From NCBI GenBank assembly GCA_038045705.1, contig JBBSXO010000002.1, positions 25,557 through 89,556 on the forward strand: a DNA stretch of 64,000 bases, in the 5' to 3' direction. Both the position numbers and the translations under genes were made by a program. Under the pieces are notes generated by a model that searched no databases, was not told the DNA's origin, and worked only from the letters and a program-made list of their open reading frames with translations. Source of the DNA: Nanobdellota archaeon. Its GTDB lineage: Archaea; Nanobdellota; Nanobdellia; Pacearchaeales; GW2011-AR1. Below, piece after piece: positions 35,357-51,065 of this stretch (the stretch's first letter is position 1; the number at the start of each line of letters is the position of its first letter).

Positions 35357-35899
35357 ATGCCACAAGCAGTTACACACGTTTTAATACCTATAATTTTATT
35401 ATCAATATTTAGACACATCTATCAAAAAAGAACTAATAAAAAATTCCCATTACAATACGTCTTAATAGGAGGTCTAGCAGGAGTAATTCCAGATTTAGAT
35501 ATTCCTTTATTCTGGATAATGCATTACTTCGGCTACAGCCTAGAACAAATCCATCGAACTTTTTTACACACAATTTTCATCCCGCTAATTTTTTTAGCAC
35601 TGGCATTTATATCAAAATATACAATAAAAAAGAAAATTGGCAGAAATAAACTTTCAATTCCAGTGATCTTAATTTTATTTGCATTTGGCAGCACAATACA
35701 CCTTATCCTAGACTCAACTTTGGCAGGATATATAACTCCATTATATCCATTTTCAGAAACAAAGTTTGGAACAGGTTTTCCATTCAGCATCTTACCCGAA
35801 CATCTAGCAATATTTTTCTTAGCAACTTTAGATGGAGTTCTATTTATATTATGGATTTTATATCTAGAAATAAAACACAAAATATCGGATTTTATATGA
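35357..35899 (+). CDS. Membrane metal-dependent hydrolase (YdjM-like)
   Basis: TH, PDLD, HRTFLHT, HLILD, PLYPFS. Confidence 0.85.
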   Translation: MPQAVTHVLIPIILLSIFRHIYQKRTNKKFPLQYVLIGGLAGVIPDLDIPLFWIMHYFGYSLEQIHRTFLHTIFIPLIFLALAFISKYTIKKKIGRNKLSIPVILILFAFGSTIHLILDSTLAGYITPLYPFSETKFGTGFPFSILPEHLAIFFLATLDGVLFILWILYLEIKHKISDFI

Positions 35900-36814: not shown

Positions 36815-36832
36815 TAAATGCTCTTCTTATAA

Positions 36833-36933
36833 TGGCCCCACGCAGACTCGAACTGCGAATTACTCGGCTTTTAGTGTCTTCATTTCTTCCAACAGATGTA
36901 AACGAGTCGTTTGAACCCTTAGACTATGGGGCC
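36833..36933 (-). tRNA. tRNA-Val(TAC) with 29-nt intron at 37/38 (36868..36896)
   Basis: GGCCCCA/TGGGGCC acceptor stem, ACTCG-TTTACAC-CGAGT anticodon arm after splicing, CGCAG-TTCGAGT-CTGCG T arm; TTTA/TAAA central BHB helix; D-stem imperfect. Confidence 0.88.
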
Positions 36934-36937
36934 ATAC

Positions 36938-37885
36938 TTACGATTTTATTTTACTTATTATAAACGTTTCTACCTGTTCTTTTTTTGGTACTTTTCCAGT
37001 TCTTAGAAACTCTTTATATTTGTAATTATTCTTAAAATTTGAGAATCCTATTTTATCATAAAAATCTTTTACTTTCTCTTTTGTATAAATCATAATTCCT
37101 TTGTTGTATACTCCATGCTTTATTTCTAACATCTTTAACCCTTGACTTACAGAATCTATTAAAGACTTTATTGTAATGGATAAATGAATCATTATTTTTG
37201 AATTTGGGTGTGAAGATAAACTTCCATCTGTATCCATTAATCCCCTTATACAAGACGCCACGGCTTCTTTATTAGCCATAATATAACCAGGAATTACTGG
37301 ATTTGAGCCATATTTTACTCCTATTGGAAATCCGCATTTGTTTAGATATTCTGCTACTTTCTTACTATAAATTAAGCACCTTATCACCCTTTCTCTTTTA
37401 TTAGTATAAATTTTTGGATAAAATCCAAAGAGATTATTAATTAGATTATTCAAAAAATTGTTATAATAAAAATAGTCCACTATTTTATCTCCTGTAATAG
37501 ATGTAGCTTTTTTATCTGAAAATATGCACCCATCTCCTAATAATACTCCATACAATTCTGCAAAATGAGGATTTTCTTTATCTGGAAAAGTTACTTCTTT
37601 TATTTGTAACTTCTGACCCCAGAAAGGTTCAGTTCTTTTAATATCTAATTTAGTAATATCAACATCTGCTAATTTTATTAATTTATTAAACTTTGATGAT
37701 GCAATTGTTCTATTAGGTATTAACCAATCATGAATTACTGCTTGCAGGTTAATTTCTAGTTTAGAGGCTAGTTGCTTCCAAGTTAGATTATTCTTTATCT
37801 TAGCTGAATTAAGAATTTCTTTTAAAGATCTCTTATCTAATAGTATTCTTTCTTCTATAAACCTACCGTCAGTTGTTCTTTTCAT
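36938..37885 (-). CDS. Free-standing LAGLIDADG homing-endonuclease-like protein with N-terminal HTH
   Basis: Two motifs LYGVLLGDGCI and CIRGLMDTDGS; FYDKIGFSN; no intein splicing motifs. Confidence 0.85.
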   Translation of the reverse strand: MKRTTDGRFIEERILLDKRSLKEILNSAKIKNNLTWKQLASKLEINLQAVIHDWLIPNRTIASSKFNKLIKLADVDITKLDIKRTEPFWGQKLQIKEVTFPDKENPHFAELYGVLLGDGCIFSDKKATSITGDKIVDYFYYNNFLNNLINNLFGFYPKIYTNKRERVIRCLIYSKKVAEYLNKCGFPIGVKYGSNPVIPGYIMANKEAVASCIRGLMDTDGSLSSHPNSKIMIHLSITIKSLIDSVSQGLKMLEIKHGVYNKGIMIYTKEKVKDFYDKIGFSNFKNNYKYKEFLRTGKVPKKEQVETFIISKIKS

Positions 37886-37987: not shown

Positions 37988-38091
37988 GCGCGGGTAGTAT
38001 AGTGGTTAGTATACGACGTTGCCACTTTTTCCCTTTAGTAAGAAGAGAAAGCAAAGACGTTGTGGCCCGGGTTCAATTCCCGGCCCGCGCA
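37988..38091 (+). tRNA. tRNA-Gly(GCC) with 32-nt intron at 37/38 (38025..38056)
   Basis: GCGCGGG/CCCGCGC acceptor, CGACG-TTGCCAA-CGTTG anticodon arm after splicing, CCGGG-TTCAATT-CCCGG; TTGC/GCAA BHB helix. Confidence 0.93.
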
Positions 38092-38171
38092 TACCTCCAT
38101 CATGGCTCCTTTCATGTGAACTCGCCTTATTGTCCGAACCTTTCATTAAAAAAAATATAAACTCTTTTAAT

Positions 38172-38912
38172 CTAAACTTCTTTAGAAAGATTCCATAGAA
38201 AGTCAAATTGCTTTCTAAAAGTATTAAACACTTCTTCATTCTTGATTACCACCCCAAGAGGCTCTCCTGAATAGACTATTATAGCAACTTGATCCTCAAA
38301 CAGCATAATCTCAGTTACCTGAATTAATTGTCGAGGCAGTTTCTTACGTTCGCTAAGAGCTTTAGTTATTCCAACTGTATTCTTAAAATCTGCATTAAAA
38401 AGGAGATGTTCTTTTATTTTACGATTTTTTCTTAACTGATTAAAATGCGTCCAGTAGGTTTCGCCTAATATTTCTACAGAAGCGTTACTTACTCCAATTA
38501 TCCAAAACTCTTTACTGGATAACATATCTTGCAATATTTTCTTTACGCCTTGAATTCCTCTAAATAAGAATGTTTCCTGTTCAGTCTTACTAGTTGAAAG
38601 TATTGAATTGATCTCTGGGATAAGATTTGTTGCAGATTTTATTTCTTCTTCTAGATTCTTCTTTTTTGTTTCCAAAAAATCAATAATGCTTTCTGGTTTC
38701 TCGGCAATGAATTTTCTCTTTGTTCCTTCAACCACATAAGAAACAAGCCCTTTATCAATCAGTTTTTCAAGATTATCATATATTATATTTCTATGAACCC
38801 CTACAGACTTTACTAATTCGGAAGCTGTAGCTTGTCCTTTCTTAAGTAGGCCAAAATACACCTTGGCTTCATTTTTATTCAACCCTAGTTTCTCTAAATC
38901 TGCAATGTGCAT
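38172..38912 (-). CDS. TrmB-family transcriptional regulator
   Basis: LGLNKNEAKVY..LL..G...ASEL....VHR..IYD.LEKL..KGLV; FRGIQGVK. Confidence 0.88.
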   Translation of the reverse strand: MHIADLEKLGLNKNEAKVYFGLLKKGQATASELVKSVGVHRNIIYDNLEKLIDKGLVSYVVEGTKRKFIAEKPESIIDFLETKKKNLEEEIKSATNLIPEINSILSTSKTEQETFLFRGIQGVKKILQDMLSSKEFWIIGVSNASVEILGETYWTHFNQLRKNRKIKEHLLFNADFKNTVGITKALSERKKLPRQLIQVTEIMLFEDQVAIIVYSGEPLGVVIKNEEVFNTFRKQFDFLWNLSKEV

Positions 38913-39024
38913 ATCTTTAGATTAATTATTTCTATTTAAATCTATCTTATGCTGTCACAACTTATTGCAACATTCTATTAAATAGCCTTGTTTTTCAAAC
39001 TACTTTATAGGGATAATAAGAACA

Positions 39025-39519
39025 ATGGAAAACAAAGATAACTCGGAATTTGAATTTGGAGAAAGCAAACATAGATGGAATGATTGGTTTCCATTAGCTA
39101 GCGAACTTCATTCGACCTTTGTTCATTTTAAAGGCCATTCTTTGGTAGTAGGGGAAGCAAAAGATTTGATTAGAAAATGGATTTCAGAACCACGATATTC
39201 AGAAAGTAGAACACCACTTTGGAGTATAATCACAAGATCTTATTTGAGAGATTATGGAATTGACTTGCAAACAATAACAAAAGTTGATTTTGAAAATAAA
39301 CTTGGAGATTTAGTTAGAAGAGGTCTGAAGTTTGAAGTTGTTAAAAGTCTAGATGATTTAGCTGTTGAGGTAAATAGATCTACAAAAGATGCAGTAGATG
39401 GAAAAGGACCATTTGAGTGGAGAAAATATGCTGAAGCTTGTAAGATAGCAGGACACTTAATATATGGACCTAATGCAGAAGTATTTGCAGATAAGATAGT
39501 AATTCCTGAACAGTTTTAG
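39025..39519 (+). CDS. Orphan hypothetical protein
   Basis: ORF inside island. Confidence 0.55.
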   Translation: MENKDNSEFEFGESKHRWNDWFPLASELHSTFVHFKGHSLVVGEAKDLIRKWISEPRYSESRTPLWSIITRSYLRDYGIDLQTITKVDFENKLGDLVRRGLKFEVVKSLDDLAVEVNRSTKDAVDGKGPFEWRKYAEACKIAGHLIYGPNAEVFADKIVIPEQF

Positions 39520-39551
39520 TTCCCATCAGGATGCGCGAAGTGTATTGAACA

Positions 39552-39599
39552 CGGCCCGCGCATACCCCTCTTCGTATCCTTTCATGCGCACCCAATTAA
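39552..39599 (+). repeat. Copy of tRNA-Gly 3' end plus downstream motif (att-like)
   Basis: CGGCCCGCGCATACC identical to 38081..38095; TCCTTTCATG follows at near-identical spacing; 39575..39599 is 23/25 identical to the reverse complement of 48807..48831. Confidence 0.85.
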
Positions 39600-39606
39600 T
39601 CCACAG

Positions 39607-40164
39607 TTATTGCTCTGGAGAAACATAATGATTTGGGTGCACTGCTGGTAGTGTTTCAAGATGTGCTTTCTCATCTGCACTTAAACATGCGTATTGAGCA
39701 AAACGCTCGATATAACCTTCTCTTTTTGTCTCCAATGTCAAAACACTTCTGCGTAATTTAGGGTAAGGTGGATCAGTAGAAATTAATTTCGCAATAGTTC
39801 TAAAACTCACTTTAAGAGCCATAGCTAATTCTCTATTTCTTGGTCTTACCTGTTTAGCAAAATCCCTAATTGCTCCGAATACATCAAGATATTTATTTTG
39901 ATCATATTTAAAGCCAGAACGTGTAATTTTACCTCTTAAAGCCCTTTCTCTATCAATCTGGCTGGCAGGTAAAATATGCGCTTCTCCATTTTGTAAAGAA
40001 GTTAAGATCTGTTCCAAATCCCCTACTAACATATTTGCATCTCTACTTGACTTGGTACCCCTTATACGTTCCACTAAGGCTTCTGTTATTCTTTTTGGAT
40101 AAAATTCAGAAACATATCTTAGATAGTGTTCTTTTGCATGTTCCCAAGCTTGATCGTTTGCCAT
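39607..40164 (-). CDS. Orphan hypothetical protein
   Basis: 185-aa ORF. Confidence 0.55.
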   Translation of the reverse strand: MANDQAWEHAKEHYLRYVSEFYPKRITEALVERIRGTKSSRDANMLVGDLEQILTSLQNGEAHILPASQIDRERALRGKITRSGFKYDQNKYLDVFGAIRDFAKQVRPRNRELAMALKVSFRTIAKLISTDPPYPKLRRSVLTLETKREGYIERFAQYACLSADEKAHLETLPAVHPNHYVSPEQ

Positions 40165-40218
40165 AGAAAAAAGTCAAAAGAAAGGTATATAAAGATAATG
40201 TGTAACTAATAGTTACCT

Positions 40219-40956
40219 ATGATTGAACCTACTCAACTACGTGCATTAGGTATCTCAGAAAATGAAGCAGTTATACTTGCAGAGATCATACAAAATTCTT
40301 CATGTACTGCAACAGAACTCATTGAATCGACAGGGATGAACCGTAAAGTAGTCTATGATGGACTTAAGAGACTTGCACATAAAGCTCTTATTAATTCATT
40401 AAAAAGTGGCAAGGAGCGTAAATACTCTTTTGGAGGAGAACCAAGTATAAGAGCACTTATAGAAAGAGAAAAACAATCTATGGAAATAAGAGCAAAAGAA
40501 ATGCTTGCAATAACTCAGGCAATAAAAAAAATTCAAGTTGAAGAACCAGTAGAAGTAACTACCTTTAGTGGTACGCAAGGGGTGAGGGTTACCCTAAACA
40601 AGCTATTAGAATTAAACTCAGATTATGTTGCATTTGGTGGCCCATTAGAATCAGAAGCAATAATGACTGAAACTTTTTGGCTTAATTTTCAGCAAAAACA
40701 AAAAGATATGAATATTAAAATAAAATTGCTTTTCAATAATTCTCTAAAGAAATGGATTGGAAAAATAGATAACTCTAATATAAATATTAAATTTCTAAAG
40801 GAAGTCGAACCTTTAGCAGAAACAATTATATGTAAAGATCATGTATTCCTTATTATATGGACAGCAAACCCATCAGGAACAATTATAATAAATAAAGCTC
40901 TAGCAAAATCATATACTCAAATTTTTGATATGTTATGGGAACGTGCTTCAAAATAA
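40219..40956 (+). CDS. TrmB-family transcriptional regulator
   Basis: LGISENEA...TATEL...TGMNRKVVYDGLKRL; FSGTQGV. Confidence 0.85.
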   Translation: MIEPTQLRALGISENEAVILAEIIQNSSCTATELIESTGMNRKVVYDGLKRLAHKALINSLKSGKERKYSFGGEPSIRALIEREKQSMEIRAKEMLAITQAIKKIQVEEPVEVTTFSGTQGVRVTLNKLLELNSDYVAFGGPLESEAIMTETFWLNFQQKQKDMNIKIKLLFNNSLKKWIGKIDNSNINIKFLKEVEPLAETIICKDHVFLIIWTANPSGTIIINKALAKSYTQIFDMLWERASK

Positions 40957-40989
40957 ATAGCTCACTTAAATTCAAACACGGACCCAAAT

Positions 40990-41058
40990 TAGTAAGAGCC
41001 ATGGAGTTACAGAGAGCCTAATTTTGGGCTGTTTCTCCCGCGTACGTAACGAATTCTA
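40990..41058 (+). repeat. Degenerate copy of the element-end repeat
   Basis: AGTAAGAGCC, TACAGAGA and GCGT(A)CGTAACGAATTCT blocks collinear with 43370..43473. Confidence 0.6.
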
Positions 41059-41196
41059 AATTATTTAATTGTGGGCTACAACCCTTGCCGCACTCTGGGC
41101 TCACTTGGCATTTTCATGGGATTTATTTCTTTTCTCTTAATATTTTTATTATATTAGATACATAAAGATTAAATAGACTCAATTTTCATATTTTTT

Positions 41197-41673
41197 ATGA
41201 AAAAAGCAAGATTACAAATGGGAGATTTGCCTTACCCTCAATATATGGGTGAAGCACCAGATACTACCAATGATGGAAACATTAGATGGATAGGTGTTAA
41301 AGCATATGGGCTATCGGGTAAAGTAGAAGACTTCTTGTGGTGGAGAAATTTCAAAGTAGGCAACCTAAATGATGAAAGAGCAAGACATGAAGCAGCAGCA
41401 TTTATAGCAAGATTAAAAATTGGGATGAATACTGATTCAGCTTTTGGCCGTGCCTTAGATCTAAGTAATTGTGATCAAGCTACTGGAAGGGTTGCCGCAT
41501 CTAATGAGCGTGGATTATATGGAGTATATGTTGAAGCAGAAAAGAGACCATTATTTAATTTTATGACTATGATGAATGGTCTTGAAACTGAAGAAGCATT
41601 TAGAAGAAAAGACTCTAAGGAATTTGAGAGAATTTACTTACAAGCAAAAACAGTTCTCCCTTATAGTAAATAA
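41197..41673 (+). CDS. Orphan hypothetical protein
   Basis: 158-aa ORF. Confidence 0.55.
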   Translation: MKKARLQMGDLPYPQYMGEAPDTTNDGNIRWIGVKAYGLSGKVEDFLWWRNFKVGNLNDERARHEAAAFIARLKIGMNTDSAFGRALDLSNCDQATGRVAASNERGLYGVYVEAEKRPLFNFMTMMNGLETEEAFRRKDSKEFERIYLQAKTVLPYSK

Positions 41674-41688
41674 TTATAATTTTGCTAA

Positions 41689-42372
41689 TCACTTAGACTT
41701 TTTATATGGAAGCTTCTTTGGGCCTTTTGGTTCTGGTTGAGCTTTTGTAAAATCTGGAATAATGAAGACTTCTCCTCTAACTTGACTTTGATCAGTATAA
41801 GTTACATCTCTACCAGATACTACACTGGCAACCAAATTTAGTCTTCTATGGCCTAACTCTTTTCCTTCAACCCCAAAAACTTTGTCTCCTTCTGTTCCAT
41901 GATATTCAACTGCAATTAATGTTCCAGGTAAAAATGCCATAACACCATATGCTCCACCCTCTACTCCAACTTTTACATAGTCGGGAGTATTTTTATTTCC
42001 TCTTACAACTTGTAAATCTGTTACTTTTTTACCATTTAGCATTCTCTCAGAAATCTCTCTAATTGGCGAACTACTATTGGTTCTGTGAACTTTTAATTTA
42101 GGATCTCTCTTAACTAAAGCGATTCCTAAACTGTCGCTTTCTTTTTGTTCAGTTCCAAAATAATGTCTTTCTTCCATCGAACCAATACATGTTCCTATGT
42201 AACCTGGTCTCTCAAACCTAAAAGTTAGTCTTGTTCCTTGACTTGTTTCAAAATTAGCCCAATGTTCTGTGTACCACGTTGGATGAAATGTTCTTACAGT
42301 TTCTTGTGTAACATCATGAGTAATTCTTTCTAAATCGGATTTTTGAGCTAATCTATAATCTTCATTAGCCAT
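41689..42372 (-). CDS. Hypothetical protein, third gene of macro-domain operon
   Basis: Start abuts macro gene stop. Confidence 0.65.
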   Translation of the reverse strand: MANEDYRLAQKSDLERITHDVTQETVRTFHPTWYTEHWANFETSQGTRLTFRFERPGYIGTCIGSMEERHYFGTEQKESDSLGIALVKRDPKLKVHRTNSSSPIREISERMLNGKKVTDLQVVRGNKNTPDYVKVGVEGGAYGVMAFLPGTLIAVEYHGTEGDKVFGVEGKELGHRRLNLVASVVSGRDVTYTDQSQVRGEVFIIPDFTKAQPEPKGPKKLPYKKSK

Positions 42373-42373
42373 A

Positions 42374-42925
42374 TTAATTAGAAGATAATCCTGATCTTAA
42401 TTTCATTGCTGTAGCAACATCACCATAAACTACAAATGTTAGATTATTCATTTTTGTTTTAGCACCGTATTGATCCATAAATCTTCCTATACCTGCTCCA
42501 AGCTTAGAAATTGCTTCTTGGGGAGTTTTTTCTACTACTCCTGCCATTACACCCATTCTTATAGTTGGGATAAGGATTTTTCCATAATTTTGGCTGTGTG
42601 CAGCTTCAAGTCCAGCATAGACTACTTCATCTAGCGGACTTCTTAAATCATCTACTACAAATACTACATCTCTAAATCCAATTTTTCTATCAGGTCTAGC
42701 TCCACCTTTTGCAATTATTGTTTGTAAATTTTGTAAAGGCATAGCTTTTGAAGCTTGTGAATGATAATGATCTCCAGCTACTCTTTGTATAGCCCCATCA
42801 ATTCCGCCAAACCACATACCACCAGAATTAATCGCAGTAATTAAAGCATCAGCTGGTATTTTAGTTATATCTCCATCCACAACATACAAACCAGTTTTAC
42901 CGATTTTCTTTACCAACCCATCCAT
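42374..42925 (-). CDS. Macro-domain (ADP-ribose binding/hydrolase) protein
   Basis: VVDGDITKIPADALITAINS.G.W.GGIDGAI, PTIRMGV. Confidence 0.85.
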   Translation of the reverse strand: MDGLVKKIGKTGLYVVDGDITKIPADALITAINSGGMWFGGIDGAIQRVAGDHYHSQASKAMPLQNLQTIIAKGGARPDRKIGFRDVVFVVDDLRSPLDEVVYAGLEAAHSQNYGKILIPTIRMGVMAGVVEKTPQEAISKLGAGIGRFMDQYGAKTKMNNLTFVVYGDVATAMKLRSGLSSN

Positions 42926-42927
42926 AA

Positions 42928-43305
42928 TTACTTTTCTCCAACGATTACATCTTTCTTTTCAAAAGGCTGGAAGTTTCCTCTTCTTGTTTTTACAATTTTT
43001 TTCCAACCATTAGATCTCATATTGCTTTGTAAAATATCACTATTTGGCACTTCTCTCTTAACATCATCAAGGCTCATAAGTTTCCCAAAATAATGCATTC
43101 CAGAACGATTTCTCGGTTCTCCAACAAGAATCTCTCCATCTTGAGCAACATATTCTTGTCTGTCAAAAAATGCATAACCAAATGCTTCTCTTGGTGTTTG
43201 AACTACTGATGGATCTCTTGCTTCAACTTCTTGAGCAGAACTTTCACTAAAGAAGCTTCCTAGATAAAGGAATTCTACATAATGCTTTAATGTTTCTTTT
43301 GCCAT
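42928..43305 (-). CDS. Hypothetical protein, first gene of macro-domain operon
   Basis: 2-bp gap to macro gene. Confidence 0.65.
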   Translation of the reverse strand: MAKETLKHYVEFLYLGSFFSESSAQEVEARDPSVVQTPREAFGYAFFDRQEYVAQDGEILVGEPRNRSGMHYFGKLMSLDDVKREVPNSDILQSNMRSNGWKKIVKTRRGNFQPFEKKDVIVGEK

Positions 43306-43369
43306 AATTTTAAAGCTAAATTTAAGTATTTAAATGTTTGTATGGTTGTTCTTATTTAGTAACAACTTA

Positions 43370-43541
43370 AGTAAGAGCCAAAGAGAGCCCTTTGAGGCGC
43401 TCTGGGAGACATAGAGATACAGAGACCTACTTTTTTCAATAAATCTCAAATTTAGCGTCGTAAACGCAATTCTCCACCCGCCGAGATCGGGTGGCTTATT
43501 CTAGCCATTTTTCTATGGCTTTTTCTGCTTCTGTTCTCTGG
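43370..43541. repeat. Element-end repeat, longest copy (hairpin + coding tail)
   Basis: 43486..43529 is 42/44 identical to 46280..46323; CCACCCG/CGGGTGG hairpin. Confidence 0.85.
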
Positions 43542-43580
43542 GGAGAAATATTTAAATATCTCAATTACAATAGCATTACC

Positions 43581-43829
43581 ATGGTAATGGATACAATTCA
43601 AGTAAGATTAGGACATGGCTTGGTAAAAAAGATTGACGCACTAGTAGACACTGGCGTTTATTCTAGTAGATCAGATGTACTAAGAGATGCTGTAAGAAGG
43701 TTAGTGTTGGATAAACTAATAGGCTTAATTTCCGATGAAGGAGATTCTGTTGTTCAAGCTAAGAATTTGAGAAAAAAGTTATCAAAAGAAAAATTTGATT
43801 TAAATGAGATAAATAAGTTAGCTGAATGA
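43581..43829 (+). CDS. Ribbon-helix-helix (CopG/Arc) antitoxin-like regulator
   Basis: TIQVRL....VKKIDALV..G.YSSRSDVLRDAVR. Confidence 0.85.
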   Translation: MVMDTIQVRLGHGLVKKIDALVDTGVYSSRSDVLRDAVRRLVLDKLIGLISDEGDSVVQAKNLRKKLSKEKFDLNEINKLAE

Positions 43830-44249
43830 CTCTTCTGGTTTTGAAACGTTTACATGTTTTTTTGCGAAAATGATTAAATCTTCATCGCGTGTAATTAATT
43901 GTAGATTCAGTCTTTTTGCTATTGCAATATGCAAGTAATCGTAAAAACTTAGAGTTTCATTTTCTTTCTCCCATTTCCTTGCTAAATCATAATCTCTAGG
44001 ATCTGTTTTTATAATTTCAATGAAATCAGATTCTTTAAAAAATTGGTTAACTAACTGAAATCTCTCTTTGAGAGTATAATATAATTCTTTAAGAACAATT
44101 GTAGATATAACTATTTTCTCTTGTTTATCCTCAATTTTTTCAATGAAATCTTTTGCAAGTTTCCAATATTGTACGCCACTTTTTGGATTAACTTCTTTCT
44201 TTAACAAATTTAACCAAATACATGTATCAAGATAGTATTTCTTTCCCAC
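43818..44249 (-). CDS. PIN-domain (VapC-like) ribonuclease
   Basis: YYLDTCIW, LKEL, SFYDYLHIAIA, LITRDEDL; probable GTG start. Confidence 0.88.
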   Translation of the reverse strand: MGKKYYLDTCIWLNLLKKEVNPKSGVQYWKLAKDFIEKIEDKQEKIVISTIVLKELYYTLKERFQLVNQFFKESDFIEIIKTDPRDYDLARKWEKENETLSFYDYLHIAIAKRLNLQLITRDEDLIIFAKKHVNVSKPEESFS

Positions 44250-44387
44250 ATAAGTTAAACATTTAATAATTATAAATAACTTTCTCTTTCGTCTCGACAA
44301 GATATATAAATCCTAAGTGTCTTTAAGAATTAACAAAATTAAGAACATACTCGATGCTCATCGGATTAGACAAAACTTCCTAGTGCA

Positions 44388-44399
44388 CGGCCCGCGCAT
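44388..44399 (+). repeat. Copy of tRNA-Gly 3' end (att-like)
   Basis: CGGCCCGCGCAT, a 12-bp GC-rich exact match in AT-rich DNA. Confidence 0.75.
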
Positions 44400-44626
44400 G
44401 GTACCATTATGCGATTTCTAAGAGTAATAAATTGGCTGAAAAAGATAAGCTAGTTAAGATTAATTAAATGCTATTTTGCGCTATAAGTTACAAAATGTTT
44501 ACATATAGCTACAAAATAGGTTTATTAATAATAGATATCAATACTAAAATGTATTAAAACTTACAAAATATGTAAGAAATAATACCAAATAGCAATATTT
44601 ATAAACTCTAAAACCTTAAGTATATT

Positions 44627-45868
44627 ATGGTAACTAAGTATGATGCTTTTGAAATAATTTACAAAAATAGGGCATTGCTTAAACCGATTGAGGTAGTTAA
44701 GAAGCTCAATAAAGATGAAAGGGAATATCATATAATTCATAGATACTTAAGAGAGTTAGCAAATGAAAATTTATTAGTCAAAAAGAAAGACGGATTTCAA
44801 GCAGAGATATCAGAAAAAACGGACCTCTTGTATAATCTAATTCTTTATTGCATAAAAAATGGAATAAATTATAATCTTATTTTAGATAAAAACTTTGCGC
44901 AATTTATAAGCCAGTCTATACAAAGAGAAGAAATTAGTTCTAAGAGCATTAAATTGAATCCTAGAACTATAAAAAAGTATGTCGAGATTTTAGACCGTTA
45001 TGGTTTAATATTGATAATTTCTGAAAAACCATTAAGGGCTAAATTATTCTATAATGTCCTTCTTAACAATTTGCTTGTTTATTTTGGGTATAAACACTCT
45101 GTAGTTAATGAAAACTCCAGAAATTACATTAGGGAAATAAAAAAAGAGTTAGAATCCTTTCGAAAGCTAAAGAAGAAAGATGAAGCAAAATATAGAAAGA
45201 TAGTGAACGAATTTGAGATATCCTTTATTTATCATAGCTTATCTCTAGAGGGAAACCCAATAACCCTTCCAGATACGATTAAAATATTAAAAGAAAATTT
45301 AGTTCCTGCGAATCTAAAAATAAAGGACGTTGATGAAGTTAAAAATTATCAAGAAGCTATGTTTCAAATGCTAAAAGACACAAATGAAAGAAAGCCACTA
45401 AGCATACAATCAGTCTTAGATTATCATAGAATTGCAATGAGACATCAAACATACCTTGCAGGAAGCATTAGAACAATTTCTGTACATATCAAAGGCAATC
45501 CAGATTTTAAGACAACCAATGCTGAAAAAATTAAAGAAGAACTGGATAAGTTATTTGATAGATACAACGAATTCATCAAAAGAAAAAATGTGCCTTTAGA
45601 AGAAATATTAAAATTCGCCGTTTATTTTCACAATGAGTTTCAGCACATTCATCCATTCATAGATGGAAACAGCAGAACAACCAGATTAATCACATTTCAC
45701 TTGCTTCAATCCTTAGACATTCCCATTATTGATATTCCATTTGGCTTGCTTGATGAATATTTAAGCTCCACGAAAGGCTCAAAGAACAGAGAGGATAGTA
45801 AGTTATATCAAAATCTTCAAAAGATAATTTTGTTTAATCTCAAGAAGATAAATAAGAGATTAGCTTGA
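44627..45868 (+). CDS. Fic-domain protein with N-terminal wHTH-like region
   Basis: SLSLEGN, HPFIDGNSRTTR. Confidence 0.92.
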   Translation: MVTKYDAFEIIYKNRALLKPIEVVKKLNKDEREYHIIHRYLRELANENLLVKKKDGFQAEISEKTDLLYNLILYCIKNGINYNLILDKNFAQFISQSIQREEISSKSIKLNPRTIKKYVEILDRYGLILIISEKPLRAKLFYNVLLNNLLVYFGYKHSVVNENSRNYIREIKKELESFRKLKKKDEAKYRKIVNEFEISFIYHSLSLEGNPITLPDTIKILKENLVPANLKIKDVDEVKNYQEAMFQMLKDTNERKPLSIQSVLDYHRIAMRHQTYLAGSIRTISVHIKGNPDFKTTNAEKIKEELDKLFDRYNEFIKRKNVPLEEILKFAVYFHNEFQHIHPFIDGNSRTTRLITFHLLQSLDIPIIDIPFGLLDEYLSSTKGSKNREDSKLYQNLQKIILFNLKKINKRLA

Positions 45869-45964
45869 CTAAAAGGTTCGTGACAAGTGGTTGGTGCGCA
45901 TGCAATTCATCCAATCCACGCCTTACCATAAAGTATATAAAGTATTAATTTCTTACTTTCTTAC

Positions 45965-46171
45965 ATGGAAATAACTAAAGTCAGTTCAAAAGGTCAAGTA
46001 GTAATACCTTCAAAAATAAGGGAAATGTTGGGTCTAGTGGAAGGCTCAACTGTAGCTTTAGAAGTAATTAATGATATGGCTGTAATAAAAAAGTTAGATG
46101 TGGATCTAGTAAGTCAGTTTAAGAACAGCTTGTCTGATGTTAAGGCTGGTAGAATAAGAAGAGTAGCTTAA
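45965..46171 (+). CDS. AbrB/MazE/SpoVT-family DNA-binding protein
   Basis: TKVSSKGQVVIPSKIRE.LGL.EG. Confidence 0.9.
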   Translation: MEITKVSSKGQVVIPSKIREMLGLVEGSTVALEVINDMAVIKKLDVDLVSQFKNSLSDVKAGRIRRVA

Positions 46172-46209
46172 TTATTTGATAATCTCTTTTTCATATTATG
46201 TATACATAT

Positions 46210-46335
46210 ATACAGAGACTGACTCTTTTTAGCAAAATCGTGAATTTAACGTCGACATTCCATTTCCCCACCAGCGAAAATCGGGTGGCTTATTCCAGCC
46301 ATTTTTCTATAGCTTTTTCTGCTATGTTCTCTTGG
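46210..46335. repeat. Element-end repeat, second long copy
   Basis: Collinear with 43417..43541. Confidence 0.85.
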
Positions 46336-46384
46336 TGCCCATTAACGATAACTTTAAATATCAATTGATACTAGAAAATATCAG

Positions 46385-46915
46385 ATGAAAATAAAAGATA
46401 TCAAACAAGCAATTAAGGAGTATTTCTTTGTTAATCCTGCTTCTAAGCTTAGAGTCAGAGAAATTGAAAGAACATTAAAACTTTCTCTGCCTTCTGTTAT
46501 TAGGTACTGCAAAGAATTAGAGCAAGATGGTATTTTAACAATAAACAAAACTGGAAGTGTTATTTTCTATACTGCAACCAGAAACGAAACCTACTTTTTA
46601 GAAAAAAAGCTTTACAATATCAAGCAATTATATGATTCTGGGTTAATAGGTTATCTTAAAGTAGAATTAAGCAACCCAGTAATTGTTCTTTTCGGCTCTT
46701 ATGCAAAAGGAGAAGACACAGAAAATAGCGATGTTGATTTGTATATAGAAACGCCATCAAAAAAACAAATAAATATTGAAAAATTCAGTAAATTATTACA
46801 TCGAAAAATCCAATTATTTCAGAATAAAAATCTAAAAGAAATGACAAACCCGCACCTAGCAAATAATATTATAAACGGTATAACTCTAAATAACCATATT
46901 GAGGTCTTCAAATGA
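46385..46915 (+). CDS. wHTH + minimal nucleotidyltransferase (MNT antitoxin)
   Basis: LFGSYAKGED...SDVDLYI. Confidence 0.9.
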   Translation: MKIKDIKQAIKEYFFVNPASKLRVREIERTLKLSLPSVIRYCKELEQDGILTINKTGSVIFYTATRNETYFLEKKLYNIKQLYDSGLIGYLKVELSNPVIVLFGSYAKGEDTENSDVDLYIETPSKKQINIEKFSKLLHRKIQLFQNKNLKEMTNPHLANNIINGITLNNHIEVFK

Positions 46916-47313
46916 AAGAAACAAACTGGAATGATTGTTTAATAAATAAAACAGCAAAAAGCATAACTCCTGACATAAACCGAGCAAAGTCACTTATAGA
47001 AACTGCAAAAGAAAGAATAAGTCTTATCAAAGAAATAAATCAAAAGAACTGCAATTTTGTATTTGAAGATTATTACACATCTTTATTGGAGCTTTTGCAA
47101 GCAATAACTTTCAAAAAAGGATTTAATATCATAAACCATATATGCTTAGGTTTTTATCTAAGAGATATCCTAAAAAGAGAAGATTTATACTTTCTATTTG
47201 ATGACCTAAGATTTAAGAGAAACTCTCTCACTTATTACGGAAGTAGAATGGATTATGAAACAGCAAAGCAAGCCATAGAAAAATGTAAAAGGCTGATTAA
47301 TGAGTTGGAATGA
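46912..47313 (+). CDS. HEPN-domain protein (toxin partner of MNT)
   Basis: ATGA overlap with MNT; YY.S, NH, RFKRNSLTYYG. Confidence 0.8.
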   Translation: MKETNWNDCLINKTAKSITPDINRAKSLIETAKERISLIKEINQKNCNFVFEDYYTSLLELLQAITFKKGFNIINHICLGFYLRDILKREDLYFLFDDLRFKRNSLTYYGSRMDYETAKQAIEKCKRLINELE

Positions 47314-47579
47314 AATCTATAATAATAGAAGCCCAGATTGAAGATTTCGCTTAGATATATGTTATGAAATTGTATTAGGGTCTACAAGTGTGAAAAACCC
47401 TCTGGAAATACCACAGGACCCTAATGCCTCTGCCGCACATACCACAAGATATTTAAGCTCTGAATGGGTCTAATTTTTAATAAACTCCATGGAATCTTCA
47501 CGGACCCCATGATTTTTTTAATTATATTAATTTACTAACCAAAAGTCTTATATAACCTTAATTCCTCATAATATTAACA

Positions 47580-47699
47580 TAATCCCGGGTGATCTTACGG
47601 TTGCCCGATGTTTCTTAACCGCAAGATATTTAATAGGTCGAAGGTCTTGATTTATTATCTACCCACTAGGTTTGCACTGCAACCCTAGTTTTTTGTTTT
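47580..47699 (+). ncRNA. Candidate structured RNA or leader with terminator-like end
   Basis: TTATATAA at 47548; stems 47586..47607, 47632..47656, 47665..47689 then U-tract. Confidence 0.45.
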
Positions 47700-47721
47700 A
47701 TTATAGCCGTGATTGAATACT

Positions 47722-48132
47722 ATGAATGAATCTAAAGAGGAATATTTTGTTTTAAGCGAAAGACTTGAAATAGTTAGATGGGCCATTAGTGGAGATTGTG
47801 ATGACATTGATTGTGATAGATATCTTTACAAGGATCTTTTAAGGAAAAAGTATAAGCCTGTTTTAGAACATAATTTTTCTTGTATTAACAAACTGAAAAG
47901 AGAGGAAAAAGCTCTTTTAAGAATCCTTAGTGATAAAAGGTATAAAAAGTCCCGTTATGAAACCTGTCAGGTCTGTAAAAACTACGCTGATAAGTTAGAT
48001 GAAAAAAATGAAATTGTTTGTTTTGCTAAAGAACTAGGTGATAGAAAAGGTTCAGAAATAAAAACCTTTTTTGTACATAAAAGATGTTACAAGAAAGTTA
48101 AATCTCCTAAAGGGTGGAATAAACTAATATAA
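47722..48132 (+). CDS. Cys/His-containing hypothetical protein
   Basis: CQVC...HKRC possible Zn site. Confidence 0.55.
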   Translation: MNESKEEYFVLSERLEIVRWAISGDCDDIDCDRYLYKDLLRKKYKPVLEHNFSCINKLKREEKALLRILSDKRYKKSRYETCQVCKNYADKLDEKNEIVCFAKELGDRKGSEIKTFFVHKRCYKKVKSPKGWNKLI

Positions 48133-48175
48133 AAAGGTTTAAATAATATCAATTGATAATATTATCATTAGATAC

Positions 48176-48469
48176 ATGGAAACTCAAGAATTAAAGAAAA
48201 TGAAATTTAACTTAAATGAAATTATAACGAGAAGTCCTAGACTAGACACCGTAGTTATGGTAGAACATTTTATCAAAGAGTATAGTGGAGAATATAAAAA
48301 AACAGAATTGTTCAATAAACTCCCTAAAAAGATGATGTGGGGAACATTTAATGTAATTTTACAATATTTATGGGATAACAATAAAATAGGGATAGATAAA
48401 AATGATTATGTTGTTTATATCTGGAATCCTGAATTAGTAGAGAAACTTAAAAATAGAAAAGCATATTAA
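48176..48469 (+). CDS. Small wHTH-like protein (putative antitoxin)
   Basis: PRLDTV.MVE...LF.KLPKKMMW.T..VIL.YL; directly upstream of RelE-like gene. Confidence 0.6.
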   Translation: METQELKKMKFNLNEIITRSPRLDTVVMVEHFIKEYSGEYKKTELFNKLPKKMMWGTFNVILQYLWDNNKIGIDKNDYVVYIWNPELVEKLKNRKAY

Positions 48470-48474
48470 ACTTT

Positions 48475-48810
48475 ATGTTGGTTAAACCTGCTAAAGAGCT
48501 TAAATTTATAGAGCAAGATATAGAAGATAATTTTCTTTCTTTACCAAATAATAGTCTTATAAAAAAAGGAATTCAAAGAGCTATTACCAAGCTAAAAGAA
48601 AATGTTTTTGCAGGAGAAAATATTCGTAAAGAGCGAATACCTAAAGAATATATTCAAAAATATTTGATAGATAATTTATGGTGGTATCCACTGCCTGATG
48701 CATGGAGATTAGTTTATTCTATTGCAACAAGTAAATCAGAAGTATTGGTTACAATTATTGAATATTTTGATCATAAAAATTATGCTAAAAGATTTGGTTA
48801 CAAATCTTAA
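48475..48810 (+). CDS. RelE/ParE-like toxin
   Basis: NLWWYPLPDAWRLVYSI...DHKNYAKRFGY. Confidence 0.65.
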   Translation: MLVKPAKELKFIEQDIEDNFLSLPNNSLIKKGIQRAITKLKENVFAGENIRKERIPKEYIQKYLIDNLWWYPLPDAWRLVYSIATSKSEVLVTIIEYFDHKNYAKRFGYKS

Positions 48811-48872
48811 TTAGGTGCGCATGAAAGAATATCCGTAGGACCCAGTACGGCCCTTGAGCAACTTTCACGTGA
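48807..48872. repeat. Palindromic junction between convergent TA modules containing inverted and direct copies of island junction motifs
   Basis: 48807..48831 inverted copy of 39575..39599; ACGGCCC...CTTTCACGTGA resembles 38081..38119. Confidence 0.65.
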
Positions 48873-48886
48873 TATGGGGCAATTAA

Positions 48887-49225
48887 TTAGAAACCTTCTT
48901 CACCAATACTTCTTAAAATTCTTTTGATTTCGTCAATTACTTTTTGCTGATCTTTCTTATTAGACATTCTTACAAATTTGATTAATAAATCATTTAATTC
49001 TTCTTTTTGAAGGACCTTTATTTTGAAACCATTGGTTATGAAATAGAATCTGTAGTTGTCACGCTTGAGCTCTTTAATCACCATTCCACTTACTTGGCCT
49101 ACAACTTGGCCTTTATGTGGATTTTGTTCTAATTCTCTAAATGACTCGAATATTTCTGTTGATTGTTTCTTAAAAATTTTATATATTTCTTCTTCTAGTT
49201 TTTTTGTAACTATTACTTTTGCCAT
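48887..49225 (-). CDS. RelE/ParE-like toxin
   Basis: LEQNPHKG...IKELKR..YRFYF. Confidence 0.6.
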   Translation of the reverse strand: MAKVIVTKKLEEEIYKIFKKQSTEIFESFRELEQNPHKGQVVGQVSGMVIKELKRDNYRFYFITNGFKIKVLQKEELNDLLIKFVRMSNKKDQQKVIDEIKRILRSIGEEGF

Positions 49226-49419
49226 CTTTTTTTAGAATTCTCTATGGCTTCATCTATCGAAATTGTATCTTCTTCATCCATTAATAAGTCTTGTAATTGT
49301 CTTTTCTTAGCACTAGCTATTAATTTTGCAAGTATTTGAGAATAAGTTTCTCCTTTATTTCCAAATTCTTTTATTTGATCTTTTATTTCATTACTTAGGG
49401 CAATTGTTGTATTTTCCAT
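49213..49419 (-). CDS. Small antitoxin-like protein
   Basis: TTIALS.EIK..IKEFG.KGETY.QIL; overlaps toxin start. Confidence 0.7.
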   Translation of the reverse strand: MENTTIALSNEIKDQIKEFGNKGETYSQILAKLIASAKKRQLQDLLMDEEDTISIDEAIENSKKRWQK

Positions 49420-49624
49420 ATTATAATCGTTATAATAATTATAATGGCTATAATATATAAATCTTCGTATTTCAATATAGTTTGTGTTGGTGAATGTGTA
49501 TCAAGTTCGGACAGTACATAATTAATCTAATTTAATGAAATGTTTAGTCAATTATATAGTCTCCAAAAGTCAACTCCACTCGTAAAACTAACATCTTTAT
49601 TAATCTCATAAGCATAAACAAAAT

Positions 49625-50106
49625 ATGAATAAATTCATAGGTTATGGGAGCTTATTAAGCCATTCTTCATTAAAAGAAACAATAAAAGACAAAAAATTTA
49701 CTCCGATAATTGTTAAAGGTTACAAAAGAATATTCAATCTAAAAATAAGAAATAATGGAAAAACAGATATTCTAAATCTAATAAAAGATAAAAGAGCTCG
49801 TTCAATAGAGTCTTGTTCAAAATAAACAAAAAAGAATTGATAAAAATAAAAAAAAGAGAAGATGAGTATAGTTTAGAAGAAGTAGAAGTCTATGATTTTA
49901 AAACAGAGAAAAGACTAGGAAATGGACTAGTTGCAATAGATTACCTAGTAAATTTAGATAACACTAGAAAGAAGCCAAATAAACATTATTTAGAGTTATG
50001 CAGGAAATCAGCATATAAAATAGGTAAAGAATTTGGAAAAGTCTGGGATGAAACAACATACACTTCAAATGGTAAGAAAATTAGTGATTGGTTAAAGAGA
50101 AGATAA
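49625..50106 (+). pseudogene. Gamma-glutamylcyclotransferase-like gene split by a frameshift near 49795
   Basis: FIGYGSLL...VKGYKRIFN in frame 1; FNRVLFKI...KRE..Y continues in another frame. Confidence 0.65.
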
Positions 50107-50483: not shown

Positions 50484-51065
50484 ATGGATTTCCAAAAAAA
50501 GTTGCGCGTTTTAGATCCAGCAGTAAAAAAGAACATTACAAAATTAATCAAAGAAATAGAAAAAAATATAGACTACTTATATGAAATAGCAACAATAGAT
50601 GAAAAAACAGGTGTATATAACAATAAATTTTTTAAAACAATTTCAGAAATGGAATTAGACAAGACAAAAAGAGGAATCGGTCCATTAAGCCTTTTAATAA
50701 TAGACTTGGATAATTTCAAAAAGTTAAATGATAAATATGGACATTTAATAGGAGACAAGATATTACATCGTTTAGGTTTTGTATTAAAAGAGAATACAAG
50801 AAAATATGATATTGTATCTCGATTTGGAGGAGAAGAATTTATTATCCTTCTTCCAAATACAACCTTAAAGAGAGCAAAGGTAGTATGCGAACGTTTAAGA
50901 AAAAAAGTTCAAGATGACTCTGAAATGAGTAAATACTCTGTAACTATGTCAGGAGGCTTAACTGAATATAGAAAAGGAGATAGTGTAAAAAGAATGCAAA
51001 TTAGAGCAGATAAAGCAGTTTACAAAGCAAAAATATTAGGAAAAAACAGATTAGAGATATTATAG
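50484..51065 (+). CDS. GGDEF-domain diguanylate cyclase
   Basis: DEKTGVYN, IDLDNFKKLNDKYGHLIGD, RKYD I-site, SRFGGEEF, AD..VY.AK..GKNR. Confidence 0.92.
   Translation: MDFQKKLRVLDPAVKKNITKLIKEIEKNIDYLYEIATIDEKTGVYNNKFFKTISEMELDKTKRGIGPLSLLIIDLDNFKKLNDKYGHLIGDKILHRLGFVLKENTRKYDIVSRFGGEEFIILLPNTTLKRAKVVCERLRKKVQDDSEMSKYSVTMSGGLTEYRKGDSVKRMQIRADKAVYKAKILGKNRLEIL

Follow-up and report, generated by a model that had tools for sequence, protein, structure and literature searches.

A tRNA-anchored island of small gene modules

The window analysed here is a 64-kb stretch of the genome of a DPANN-type archaeon (contig C2, positions 25557-89556, of genome G000, which comprises 844,273 bp in 10 contigs and is 91% complete). 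It contains a tRNA-Gly(GCC) gene directly followed by a variable island of regulators, defence or toxin-antitoxin-like genes and small open reading frames (ORFs), in which copies of the tRNA 3' end recur between gene modules (Table 1). The tRNA gene was missed by the default mode of ARAGORN and recovered by Rfam together with ARAGORN -i, and Rfam reported no RNA family besides tRNAs. Specifically, the sequence CGGCCCGCGCAT, which corresponds to the last 11 nt of tRNA-Gly(GCC) plus one nucleotide, is repeated in direct orientation on the forward strand, with copies at 38081, 39552 and 44388. These three exact cores, already pointed out in a preliminary description made from the letters of this DNA, are the only copies in the whole genome; the chance expectation is 0.02, none of 100 shuffles gave three copies, and no further match appeared even when two mismatches were allowed. 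Core copies 1 and 2 have 15 nt in common. The tRNA-Gly 3'-end repeats are attachment (att) sites.

The core copies outside the tRNA gene share their flanks, with a CATC block near -29 in the upstream P arm, often a GTG right before the core, and recurring TTTTGTC...TTTCRTG-type motifs in the downstream P' arms. The P' arm after core 1 is similar to the arm that precedes an integrase gene in congener G013, the P arm of core 2 matches, at 94% identity, the right end of an element resembling an integrative and conjugative element (ICE) in G013, and the P' arm of core 2 recurs almost unchanged beside tRNA-Gly(CCC) on contig C3. Core 3 has a P-arm type that is also found in G001, G012 and G006, and a P' arm similar to that of the element resident at tRNA-Asp. 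A nhmmer profile built from 22 junctions, all taken from relatives, was scanned against the whole G000 genome, and its top three matches are the sites at 44345-44430 (E value of 6.2e-10) and 39508-39584 (4.5e-7) and the tRNA copy (2.6e-4), followed by one more site on contig C6 (1.8e-3); all remaining matches have E values above 0.2. Since the junction profile finds little beyond the island, such att sites are not commonplace between genes in this genome. The exact 30-nt junction at core 2 is absent from the collections viral_contigs and metagenome_contigs.

Further, decayed cores were recognized beyond and between the perfect ones. A degenerate consensus, CAC(G/A)G(A/C)CCC, had been proposed for positions 40977, 47412, 47499 and 48846; it matches exactly at 40977 and 47499 and has no match at 47412 and 48846, and with an expectation of 0.22 it gave two or more matches in three of 100 shuffles. 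The sites at 47499 and 48846 are nevertheless decayed cores, as alignment to perfect cores in congener G003 validates both of them, the latter, within the site at 48802..48858, not being significant by itself (nhmmer E value of 3.9); position 47412 is a possible further core remnant. The 25-nt motif at 39575-39599 does recur inverted at 48807-48831, as described earlier, with 92% complementarity, the former lying in a P' arm and the latter in a P arm. An inner motif, CATGYGMAC, occurs eight times in the genome, four of them in the island (1.4% of the genome) and in consistent orientation. By contrast, the outer TGTC..GAAC motif, given earlier as TGTC(A)CGAAC, is barely enriched, the island holding three of 36 genome-wide matches to a relaxed pattern. 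The spacers that bear att sites are indeed GC-rich (0.53 at 39520-39606 and 0.47 at 48811-48886, versus 0.31 in genes), but this does not extend to spacers in general, which average 0.326 versus 0.314 in genes. A general palindromic design, with the P arm as the inverted P' arm, failed its shuffle control and is true only between certain arm types, such as those at 39575 and 48807.

Breakpoints at the core and variation across the genus

Comparison with relatives places the breakpoints of the locus on the repeats. Homology detected by blastn stops at 38092 or 38093, the last core base, in all five aligned relatives (G005, G009, G013, G006 and G012), and with G005 it picks up again at 49596. 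In G005, the conserved flanking genes (a YdjM-like homologue of 35357-35899, and homologues of 49813-50106 and of the GGDEF gene at 50484-51065) lie ~1.2 kb apart around the tRNA-Val/tRNA-Gly pair. A CYTH-domain gene, the only extra gene, stands between a flank gene and the tRNA, and the G005 locus was accordingly classed as a minimal state rather than a truly empty one. Past its tRNA, the G005 sequence is AT-rich and similar to the flank that follows the most distal cores in G009, G013 and G002, a resemblance that is expected of attB and attR. The island is polymorphic in presence and absence, with breakpoints at att sites.

Within the genus, the 12-nt core is present in 13 of 17 genomes (36 copies, against 0 for a reversed control pattern), and its orientation is the same within each of the nine contigs that hold multiple copies (9/9). 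Fifteen segments between cores were delimited, which together with a 22.3-kb element of G013 make 16 units. The segments measure 81-7826 nt, and 11 of the 15 fall under 2 kb and keep both arms; unit sizes are continuous, from ~70 nt to 22 kb. Module order varies as well: a small gene pair precedes the ORF97/ORF111 genes in G015:C46, and a different upstream spacer is joined to these genes in G012:C3. The AbrB homologue in G010 sits in a 1.0-kb core-bounded unit whose boundaries differ from those in the window, and the three-ORF cassette of the window is 83% identical to a segment of G003:C9 that lies between two perfect cores in a 9-kb stretch without tRNA; at the homologous boundaries the window has decayed cores (47499 and 48846) and a conserved P arm. 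Gene order is thus not conserved among relatives and the breakpoints coincide with the repeats, so that the array described earlier, bounded by tRNA-Gly 3'-end copies, built by site-specific recombination and variable among relatives, withstands the comparison. In G006, contig C39 ends in a stretch of exactly 127 nt that it shares with two other contigs, and these part from each other at the base following the core, which implies a structural alternative or a repeat boundary exactly at the core. Contigs of four public runs contained no joints at cores, contigs being prone to drop rare forms. Three other joints (38684/49421, 44896/47939 and 45830/49583) were discarded as not trustworthy, their sides measuring 20-22 nt.

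In other genera, the same 12-mer ends tRNA-Gly(TCC) and is followed by 2-4 extra copies spaced 69-174 nt apart (loci L046, L048, L049 and L050).

A divergent, putative recombinase family at the same site

The 64-kb window encodes no tyrosine recombinase, in line with the absence of an integrase remarked upon earlier. The tRNA flank was retrieved for 11 congeners, and in three of them (G013, G001 and G010) a ~400-aa ORF lies directly 3' of tRNA-Gly, its start 50-140 nt after the core. Six full-length integrase genes were found across 29 fetched loci. Six members of the family align at 55-74% identity, and two of the six exceed the Pfam Phage_integrase (PF00589) cut-off. The family profile matches the archaeal XerA structures 5hxy (3.5e-5) and 4a8e (8e-4), its TG(I/V)R and RH motifs falling into register with theirs, and the invariant residues R188, R286-H287 and H316-Y317-Y318 of the family alignment are candidate signature residues. 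Judged from these similarities, the ~400-aa proteins appear to form a divergent tyrosine recombinase family. Close members occur in 7 of the 17 genus genomes and, in a sample of 151 genomes from the order, in 44, and tblastn gave no match for the recombinase in plasmid or phage collections.

The context of this recombinase in G013 links it to a large mobile element. Here, 22.3 kb separate the tRNA core from the next one, and this interval encodes the recombinase, a type I restriction-modification system, a DNA methylase, PrgI and an ATPase of the TraG/VirB4 kind. On account of this Pfam gene content, the stretch is an ICE-like element at the same site as the array of the window, and the possibility that it represents core chromosome was ruled out. 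It is the only one of the 16 units that contains an integrase. G009 is collinear with G013 for ~70 nt of the P' arm and then jumps by ~21 kb, which looks like what an internal deletion would produce.

Elsewhere in the G000 genome, Pfam PF00589 has four matches, and the search for a tyrosine recombinase that had been suggested for this genome recovered two full-length, uninterrupted paralogues of the family, at C6:65667, beside tRNA-Asp, and at C6:95415. Associated with them is a 13-bp direct repeat (C6:65572 and 95240), which corresponds to the Gly core in the tRNA positions it spans and differs from it at four of 13 bases.

Two other observations concern integrase-like sequences. A conserved 345-368-aa ORF, located ~14 kb beyond the locus (L004 934-1971; G000:C8) and syntenic in G009, G013, G001 and G012, has weak sub-threshold Pfam integrase matches (E values of 1e-5 to 6e-4) and might be a very divergent recombinase or a topoisomerase-like chromosomal gene. 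At the contig ends C5:72-85 kb and C6:0-14 kb, GC content rises from ~0.31 to 0.54-0.61; the high-GC segment of C5 begins beside tRNA-Leu(TAA) and carries a 418-aa Pfam-positive integrase. These ends are either a foreign integrated element split over two contigs or an assembly or binning chimera.

Gene content of the units and surroundings of the locus

Table 1 Features of the tRNA-Gly(GCC) locus and its island (window positions).
Feature	Position	Strand	Evidence or remark
tRNA-Val(TAC) with intron, divergent partner of tRNA-Gly	36832..36934	-	ARAGORN with introns, C2 c[62388,62490]; conserved in relatives
tRNA-Gly(GCC) with 32-nt intron, attachment-site gene	37988..38091	+	Rfam RF00005 53.1 bits; ARAGORN intron search
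Core copy 1 (attL side)	38081..38092	+	last 11 nt of tRNA plus 1 nt
Whole variable island	38093..49595	.	blastn end points, synteny; absent from corresponding position in G005
Element-derived P' arm after core 1	38093..38145	+	CATGTGAAC at 38113, TGTCCGAAC at 38131
Unit 1, 1459 nt, no integrase	38093..39551	.	
TrmB-family regulator (unit 1)	38172-38912	-	Pfam TrmB 3.6e-17
ORF164 (unit 1)	39025-39519	+	
P arm, core copy 2 (39552-39563), P' arm	39508..39600	+	attP-like junction, units 1/2
Unit 2, 4824 nt, no integrase, decayed core at 40977-40985	39564..44387	.	
ORF185 (unit 2)	39607-40164	-	
TrmB-family gene (unit 2)	40219-40956	+	Pfam
Decayed core CACGGACCC inside unit 2	40977-40985		pattern search
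ORF158 (unit 2)	41197-41673	+	
Operon of ORF125, macro-like gene and ORF227 (unit 2)	42928-43305, 42374-42925, 41689-42372	-	
RHH (unit 2)	43491-43829	+	Pfam
PIN (unit 2)	43818-44300	-	Pfam
P arm, core copy 3 (44388-44399), P' arm	44345..44430	+	relatives-only profile
Fic-domain protein with N-terminal extension	44627..45868	+	Pfam Fic 5e-14; PADLOC SoFic / PDC-S04
att remnant, GTTCGTGACA + GTGCGCATG, P-arm orientation, no recognisable core	45870..45905	+	
AbrB/MazE-type small DNA-binding protein	45965..46171	+	Pfam
MNT nucleotidyltransferase	46385-46915	+	Pfam NTP_transf_2
HEPN-like partner of MNT	46912-47313	+	
Decayed core CACGGACCCCAT, left boundary of three-ORF cassette	47499..47510	+	alignment with perfect core in G003:C9
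Three-ORF cassette (47713-48132, 48176-48469, 48475-48810)	47511..48845	+	
P arm (GGTGCGCATGAAAG...GGACCCAGT) and decayed core CGGCCCTTGAGCA at 48846	48802..48858	+	alignment to perfect G003 site
Two small overlapping ORFs (112 aa; 68 aa, DUF7557)	48887..49419	-	

The gene list of the preliminary description largely stands: Pfam supports both TrmB genes, RHH, PIN, Fic, AbrB/MazE and MNT, and PADLOC supports the MNT partner, the MNT/HEPN-like pair (46385..47313) matching both models PDC-M05A and PDC-M05B. The macro-domain match, by contrast, stays under the Pfam cut-off (20.1 versus 22 bits), the two RelE-type pairs have no support from Pfam, NCBIfam or PADLOC, and RHH and PIN, listed as one module pair, are not a toxin-antitoxin operon because the two genes are convergent. 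NCBIfam returned nothing for ten unannotated ORFs, and Pfam detected no transfer genes in units 1 and 2. Island genes occupy both strands and have AT-rich upstream spacers within the units and no common promoter. Unit 2, whose GC content of 0.34-0.36 is slightly higher than that of the flanks, is probably composite. The ORF pair at 48887..49419 could possibly be a toxin-antitoxin pair, and a paralogue of it lies ~39 kb upstream on the same contig.

ORF164 was considered as a conserved element-end gene and discarded in this role, as 16 other congeners have no copy of it. It is confined to G000, where it has two copies, each beside a core or decayed core; the second lies downstream of tRNA-Gly(CCC) on contig C3, with a 3-mismatch core after the paralogue. 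The surrounding region (C3:128250-132205) is a second, more decayed array at tRNA-Gly(CCC), whose P' arm is the same as that of core 2 in the window and whose content comprises a radical-SAM gene, a 356-aa helix-turn-helix gene, the ORF164 paralogue, the 3-mismatch core and a further P'-type motif.

The island also holds a 113-nt direct repeat (43417-43529 and 46210-46323, ~79% identity; also inverted at 47262-47285) with a GC-rich hairpin (CCACC..N..GGTGG) and an 89% match in G009:C3. Its minus strand would encode ...AEKAIEKWLE*, like the C-terminus of the HEPN-like gene at 46912-47313, and the repeat probably represents what is left of the 3' termini of related genes.

Several features surround the locus. 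The ~1.0 kb between tRNA-Val and tRNA-Gly is filled by a 315-aa LAGLIDADG-domain ORF (36938-37885, minus strand; Pfam 1.7e-9), and the two tRNA regions are only ~16-18 nt apart in G013, G006 and G012. Contigs from two public runs skip this region (36933 to 37935/37944), so the ORF resembles a free-standing insertion of the homing-endonuclease type whose presence varies within the population. The tRNA pair is flipped as a block relative to its flanks in G005, G006, G010, G014, G004, G001 and G012. About 39 kb upstream of the pair, G000:C2:21307-23070 carries genes with DnaJ and OmdA domains whose homologues lie next to the distal core in G009, G013, G002 and G012, and beside them lie a paralogue of the 48887-49419 pair (65% nucleotide identity) and a partial inverted copy of tRNA-Val (76%); this arrangement suggests a large inversion ending at tRNA-derived sites. 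Downstream of the island, a stand-alone GGDEF diguanylate-cyclase domain protein (50484-51065, plus strand; Pfam 4.4e-38), which sits beside the locus in most congeners, is encoded in what is a very small archaeal genome.

Proposed accretion of integrase-less units and its alternatives

We propose, with a probability of roughly two in three, that the island arose through serial integration at att sites with loss or absence of integrases, that is, through the accretion of units comparable to cis-mobilisable elements (CIMEs). Under this model, the 3' end of tRNA-Gly(GCC) would serve as the chromosomal attB for integrative elements that carry the ~400-aa tyrosine recombinase; each integration would rebuild the tRNA gene and leave a second 12-nt core downstream, and later integrations into existing att sites would stack elements in tandem. 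The window would then read, from the tRNA outwards, as attL, unit 1, a hybrid att site, the composite unit 2, a further att site and older units with decayed sites, amounting to two perfect-core units of 1.5 and 4.8 kb and three to five older units with decayed cores. Units 1 and 2 have perfect cores on both sides and lack genes for integration or transfer, as CIMEs do, and the units of the window without integrase or transfer genes would correspond to such elements. The surviving cargo (TrmB regulators, PIN, Fic, AbrB, MNT/HEPN and small gene pairs) may consist of addictive or defensive genes that resist deletion. All cores beyond 44388 are decayed, which suits tRNA-proximal integration with age rising distally. 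We infer that the newest unit would lie nearest the tRNA gene and that integrases would have been lost by deletion. Any present-day mobility is likewise putative, and at least the distal units, their cores being decayed, are immobile now.

Several results weigh against the accretion model. A tblastn search with the six integrases gave 12 high-scoring segment pairs in the window, all with E values of at least 0.19, and detected no integrase fragment there or in any of the 15 small units, whereas random deletions should sometimes leave pieces. In the window and in G009, the whole P' arm is kept and the integrase, which in G013 starts ~140 nt from the core, is wholly gone, and the deletion signature between G009 and G013 hangs on a single 45-nt match. 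In addition, G012, G009 and G006 (88-89% complete) have multi-core arrays, yet no close member of the recombinase family was found in these three genomes. Finally, the branch of the G006 assembly graph at the core and, in L046 (G105:C3, 3822-4181), two identical 81-nt tandem units with internal hairpins hint at recent activity and not at fossil status.

An alternative is an integron-like platform, in which natively small cassettes, each with its own att site of ~90-130 bp, are moved in trans by visiting or resident recombinases, the candidate enzymes being the two tRNA-Asp-linked paralogues of G000. Such a platform would fit the prevalence of core-bounded units under 2 kb that retain both arms and contain no integrase remnants, the occurrence of the three-ORF cassette both in the window array and at the tRNA-less perfect-core locus of G003, the differences in module order between G015 and G012, the 1.0-kb unit with the AbrB gene in G010, the graph branch exactly after the core in G006 and the arrays of G009, G012 and G006, where the family integrase was not found; the arms of the tRNA-Asp element also resemble the arm after core 3, and the tRNA positions taken up by its core are the same. 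However, the core of the resident recombinases differs at four of 13 positions, the array has neither an adjacent integrase nor a common promoter, units as short as 69 nt are too small for genes and cannot be cassettes, and the distal cores of the window have decayed. The junctions show no excess of the inverted symmetry typical of attC sites (8.42 versus 8.35 ± 0.15 in shuffles), the preliminary description likewise noted no RYYYAAC/GTTRRRY ends, and contigs of the public runs, in which rare forms are not visible, contain no excision or circle junctions. The preliminary description favoured an integron analogue that captures natively tiny cassettes; this is not supported: in relatives, the cognate recombinase rides large ICE-like elements at the same tRNA, the modules occur in either orientation, each behind an upstream region of its own, sizes range from ~70 nt to 22 kb, and neither attC-like symmetry in general nor excision junctions were seen. 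Accretion and decay are preferred as they require fewer assumptions, and we consider the integron-like platform unlikely, albeit the most serious competitor.

The two other explanations are far less probable. In the first of them, the repeats would be short motifs of tRNA origin or with a regulatory role, for instance as terminators or promoter elements, recurring by chance or through local duplication in an ordinary variable defence or toxin-antitoxin island, and it is true that the degenerate copies are singly at noise level (nhmmer E values of 1-4), that their consensus reaches two or more matches in some shuffles and that the outer motif is hardly enriched. Yet the three exact cores greatly exceed what chance would give, homology ties their flanks to the ends of the integrase-bearing G013 element, the breakpoints in five relatives fall on the last core base and Rfam finds tRNAs only, so that we regard this explanation as largely refuted and very improbable. 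Integration of the Sulfolobus spindle-shaped virus (SSV) type, with a split integrase whose Int(N) and Int(C) halves would be the ORFs adjacent to the core, might be suspected in an archaeal host in which the family-less ORF164 and ORF185 abut core 2. It was rejected and strikes us as the least credible of all, given that PF16795 has no match anywhere in the G000 genome, that both ORFs end before the core and match no integrase family, and that the cognate integrase in relatives is intact and located beside the att site, not across it.

Significance and relation to known systems

DPANN archaea have tiny genomes, and the gain and loss of their accessory genes are little understood. Our results point to a single tRNA-Gly gene as a genus-wide landing pad for a widespread and poorly recognized recombinase family, at which regulators and defence or toxin-antitoxin genes accumulate as att-bounded mini-modules. 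The locus offers both att sites and candidate enzymes for studying site-specific recombination in these organisms, and, as a natural system, it can be used to ask whether modules devoid of an integrase are fossils or hitchhikers. A bolder view, which we hold to be doubtful, is that tRNA-Gly 3' ends and the secondary sites derived from them act as an integron-like store of gene-sized, self-expressed cassettes with regulators, toxin-antitoxin and defence genes, each cassette having att arms of its own and being excised, captured and shuffled in trans by the recombinases of passing integrative elements. If true, very small genomes would have access to an exchangeable bank of accessory genes with no need for a dedicated integron integrase.

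The closest counterparts are found in bacteria. Passages of PMC5704250, which deals with ICESt1-related elements of Streptococcus thermophilus and cites Pavlovic 2004 and Bellanger 2011, define CIMEs and accretion, the latter being described for ICEs, integrative and mobilisable elements (IMEs) and CIMEs. As far as these passages describe them, the bacterial ICE/IME-CIME arrays share with the window a tyrosine recombinase that integrates into the 3' end of a gene, elements that have lost their integration and transfer genes and keep attL and attR, and further integration at these sites, which yields tandem arrays with hybrid internal att sites. They differ in that the host of the window is a DPANN-type archaeon, that ~5-8 units are packed into 11.5 kb (elsewhere down to ~70 nt), and that the related recombinase is divergent and Pfam-detected in two of six cases. 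Within G000, the tRNA-Asp elements on C6 resemble the tRNA-Gly array in their recombinase family (55-58% identity to the tRNA-Gly-linked enzymes), in the tRNA positions of the core and in similar arms, but they are large, still contain their integrases and have a core that differs at 4/13 positions.

Integrons have been reported from archaeal genomes, according to parts of bioRxiv 10.1101/2022.02.06.479319 (PMC9668308). With integrons, the array has in common an ordered series of small modules between recombination sites, variable content and order, and an enrichment in toxin-antitoxin-like genes. It lacks an adjacent IntI-type integrase, attI, Pc and the imperfect palindromes of the attC type; its modules face both ways, each with an upstream region of its own, and its recombination site is a tRNA 3' end.

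In archaea, tandem arrays of integrated elements and integrase loss after integration are described in passages of PMC6563490, which concerns Thaumarchaeota, and of a review of archaeal tyrosine recombinases (PMC8371274); a word search of that review finds neither DPANN nor Nanoarchaeota. Re-use of one tRNA att site by tyrosine-recombinase elements, some of them integrated without an integrase, is shared with these cases, which, as presented in the same passages, involve few large elements, whereas the window array consists of gene-sized modules that recur across a genus. Tandem integrated elements at a tRNA gene, including integrase-less ones, are therefore of an already known kind, and word searches of the open-access literature, which were not exhaustive, found no account of such arrays in DPANN archaea. 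The variant seen here is an array whose units, gene-sized or smaller, recur throughout a genus of this group and are linked to a recombinase family largely overlooked by standard models, and the island of the window represents an unusually miniaturized form of a known kind of genome island.

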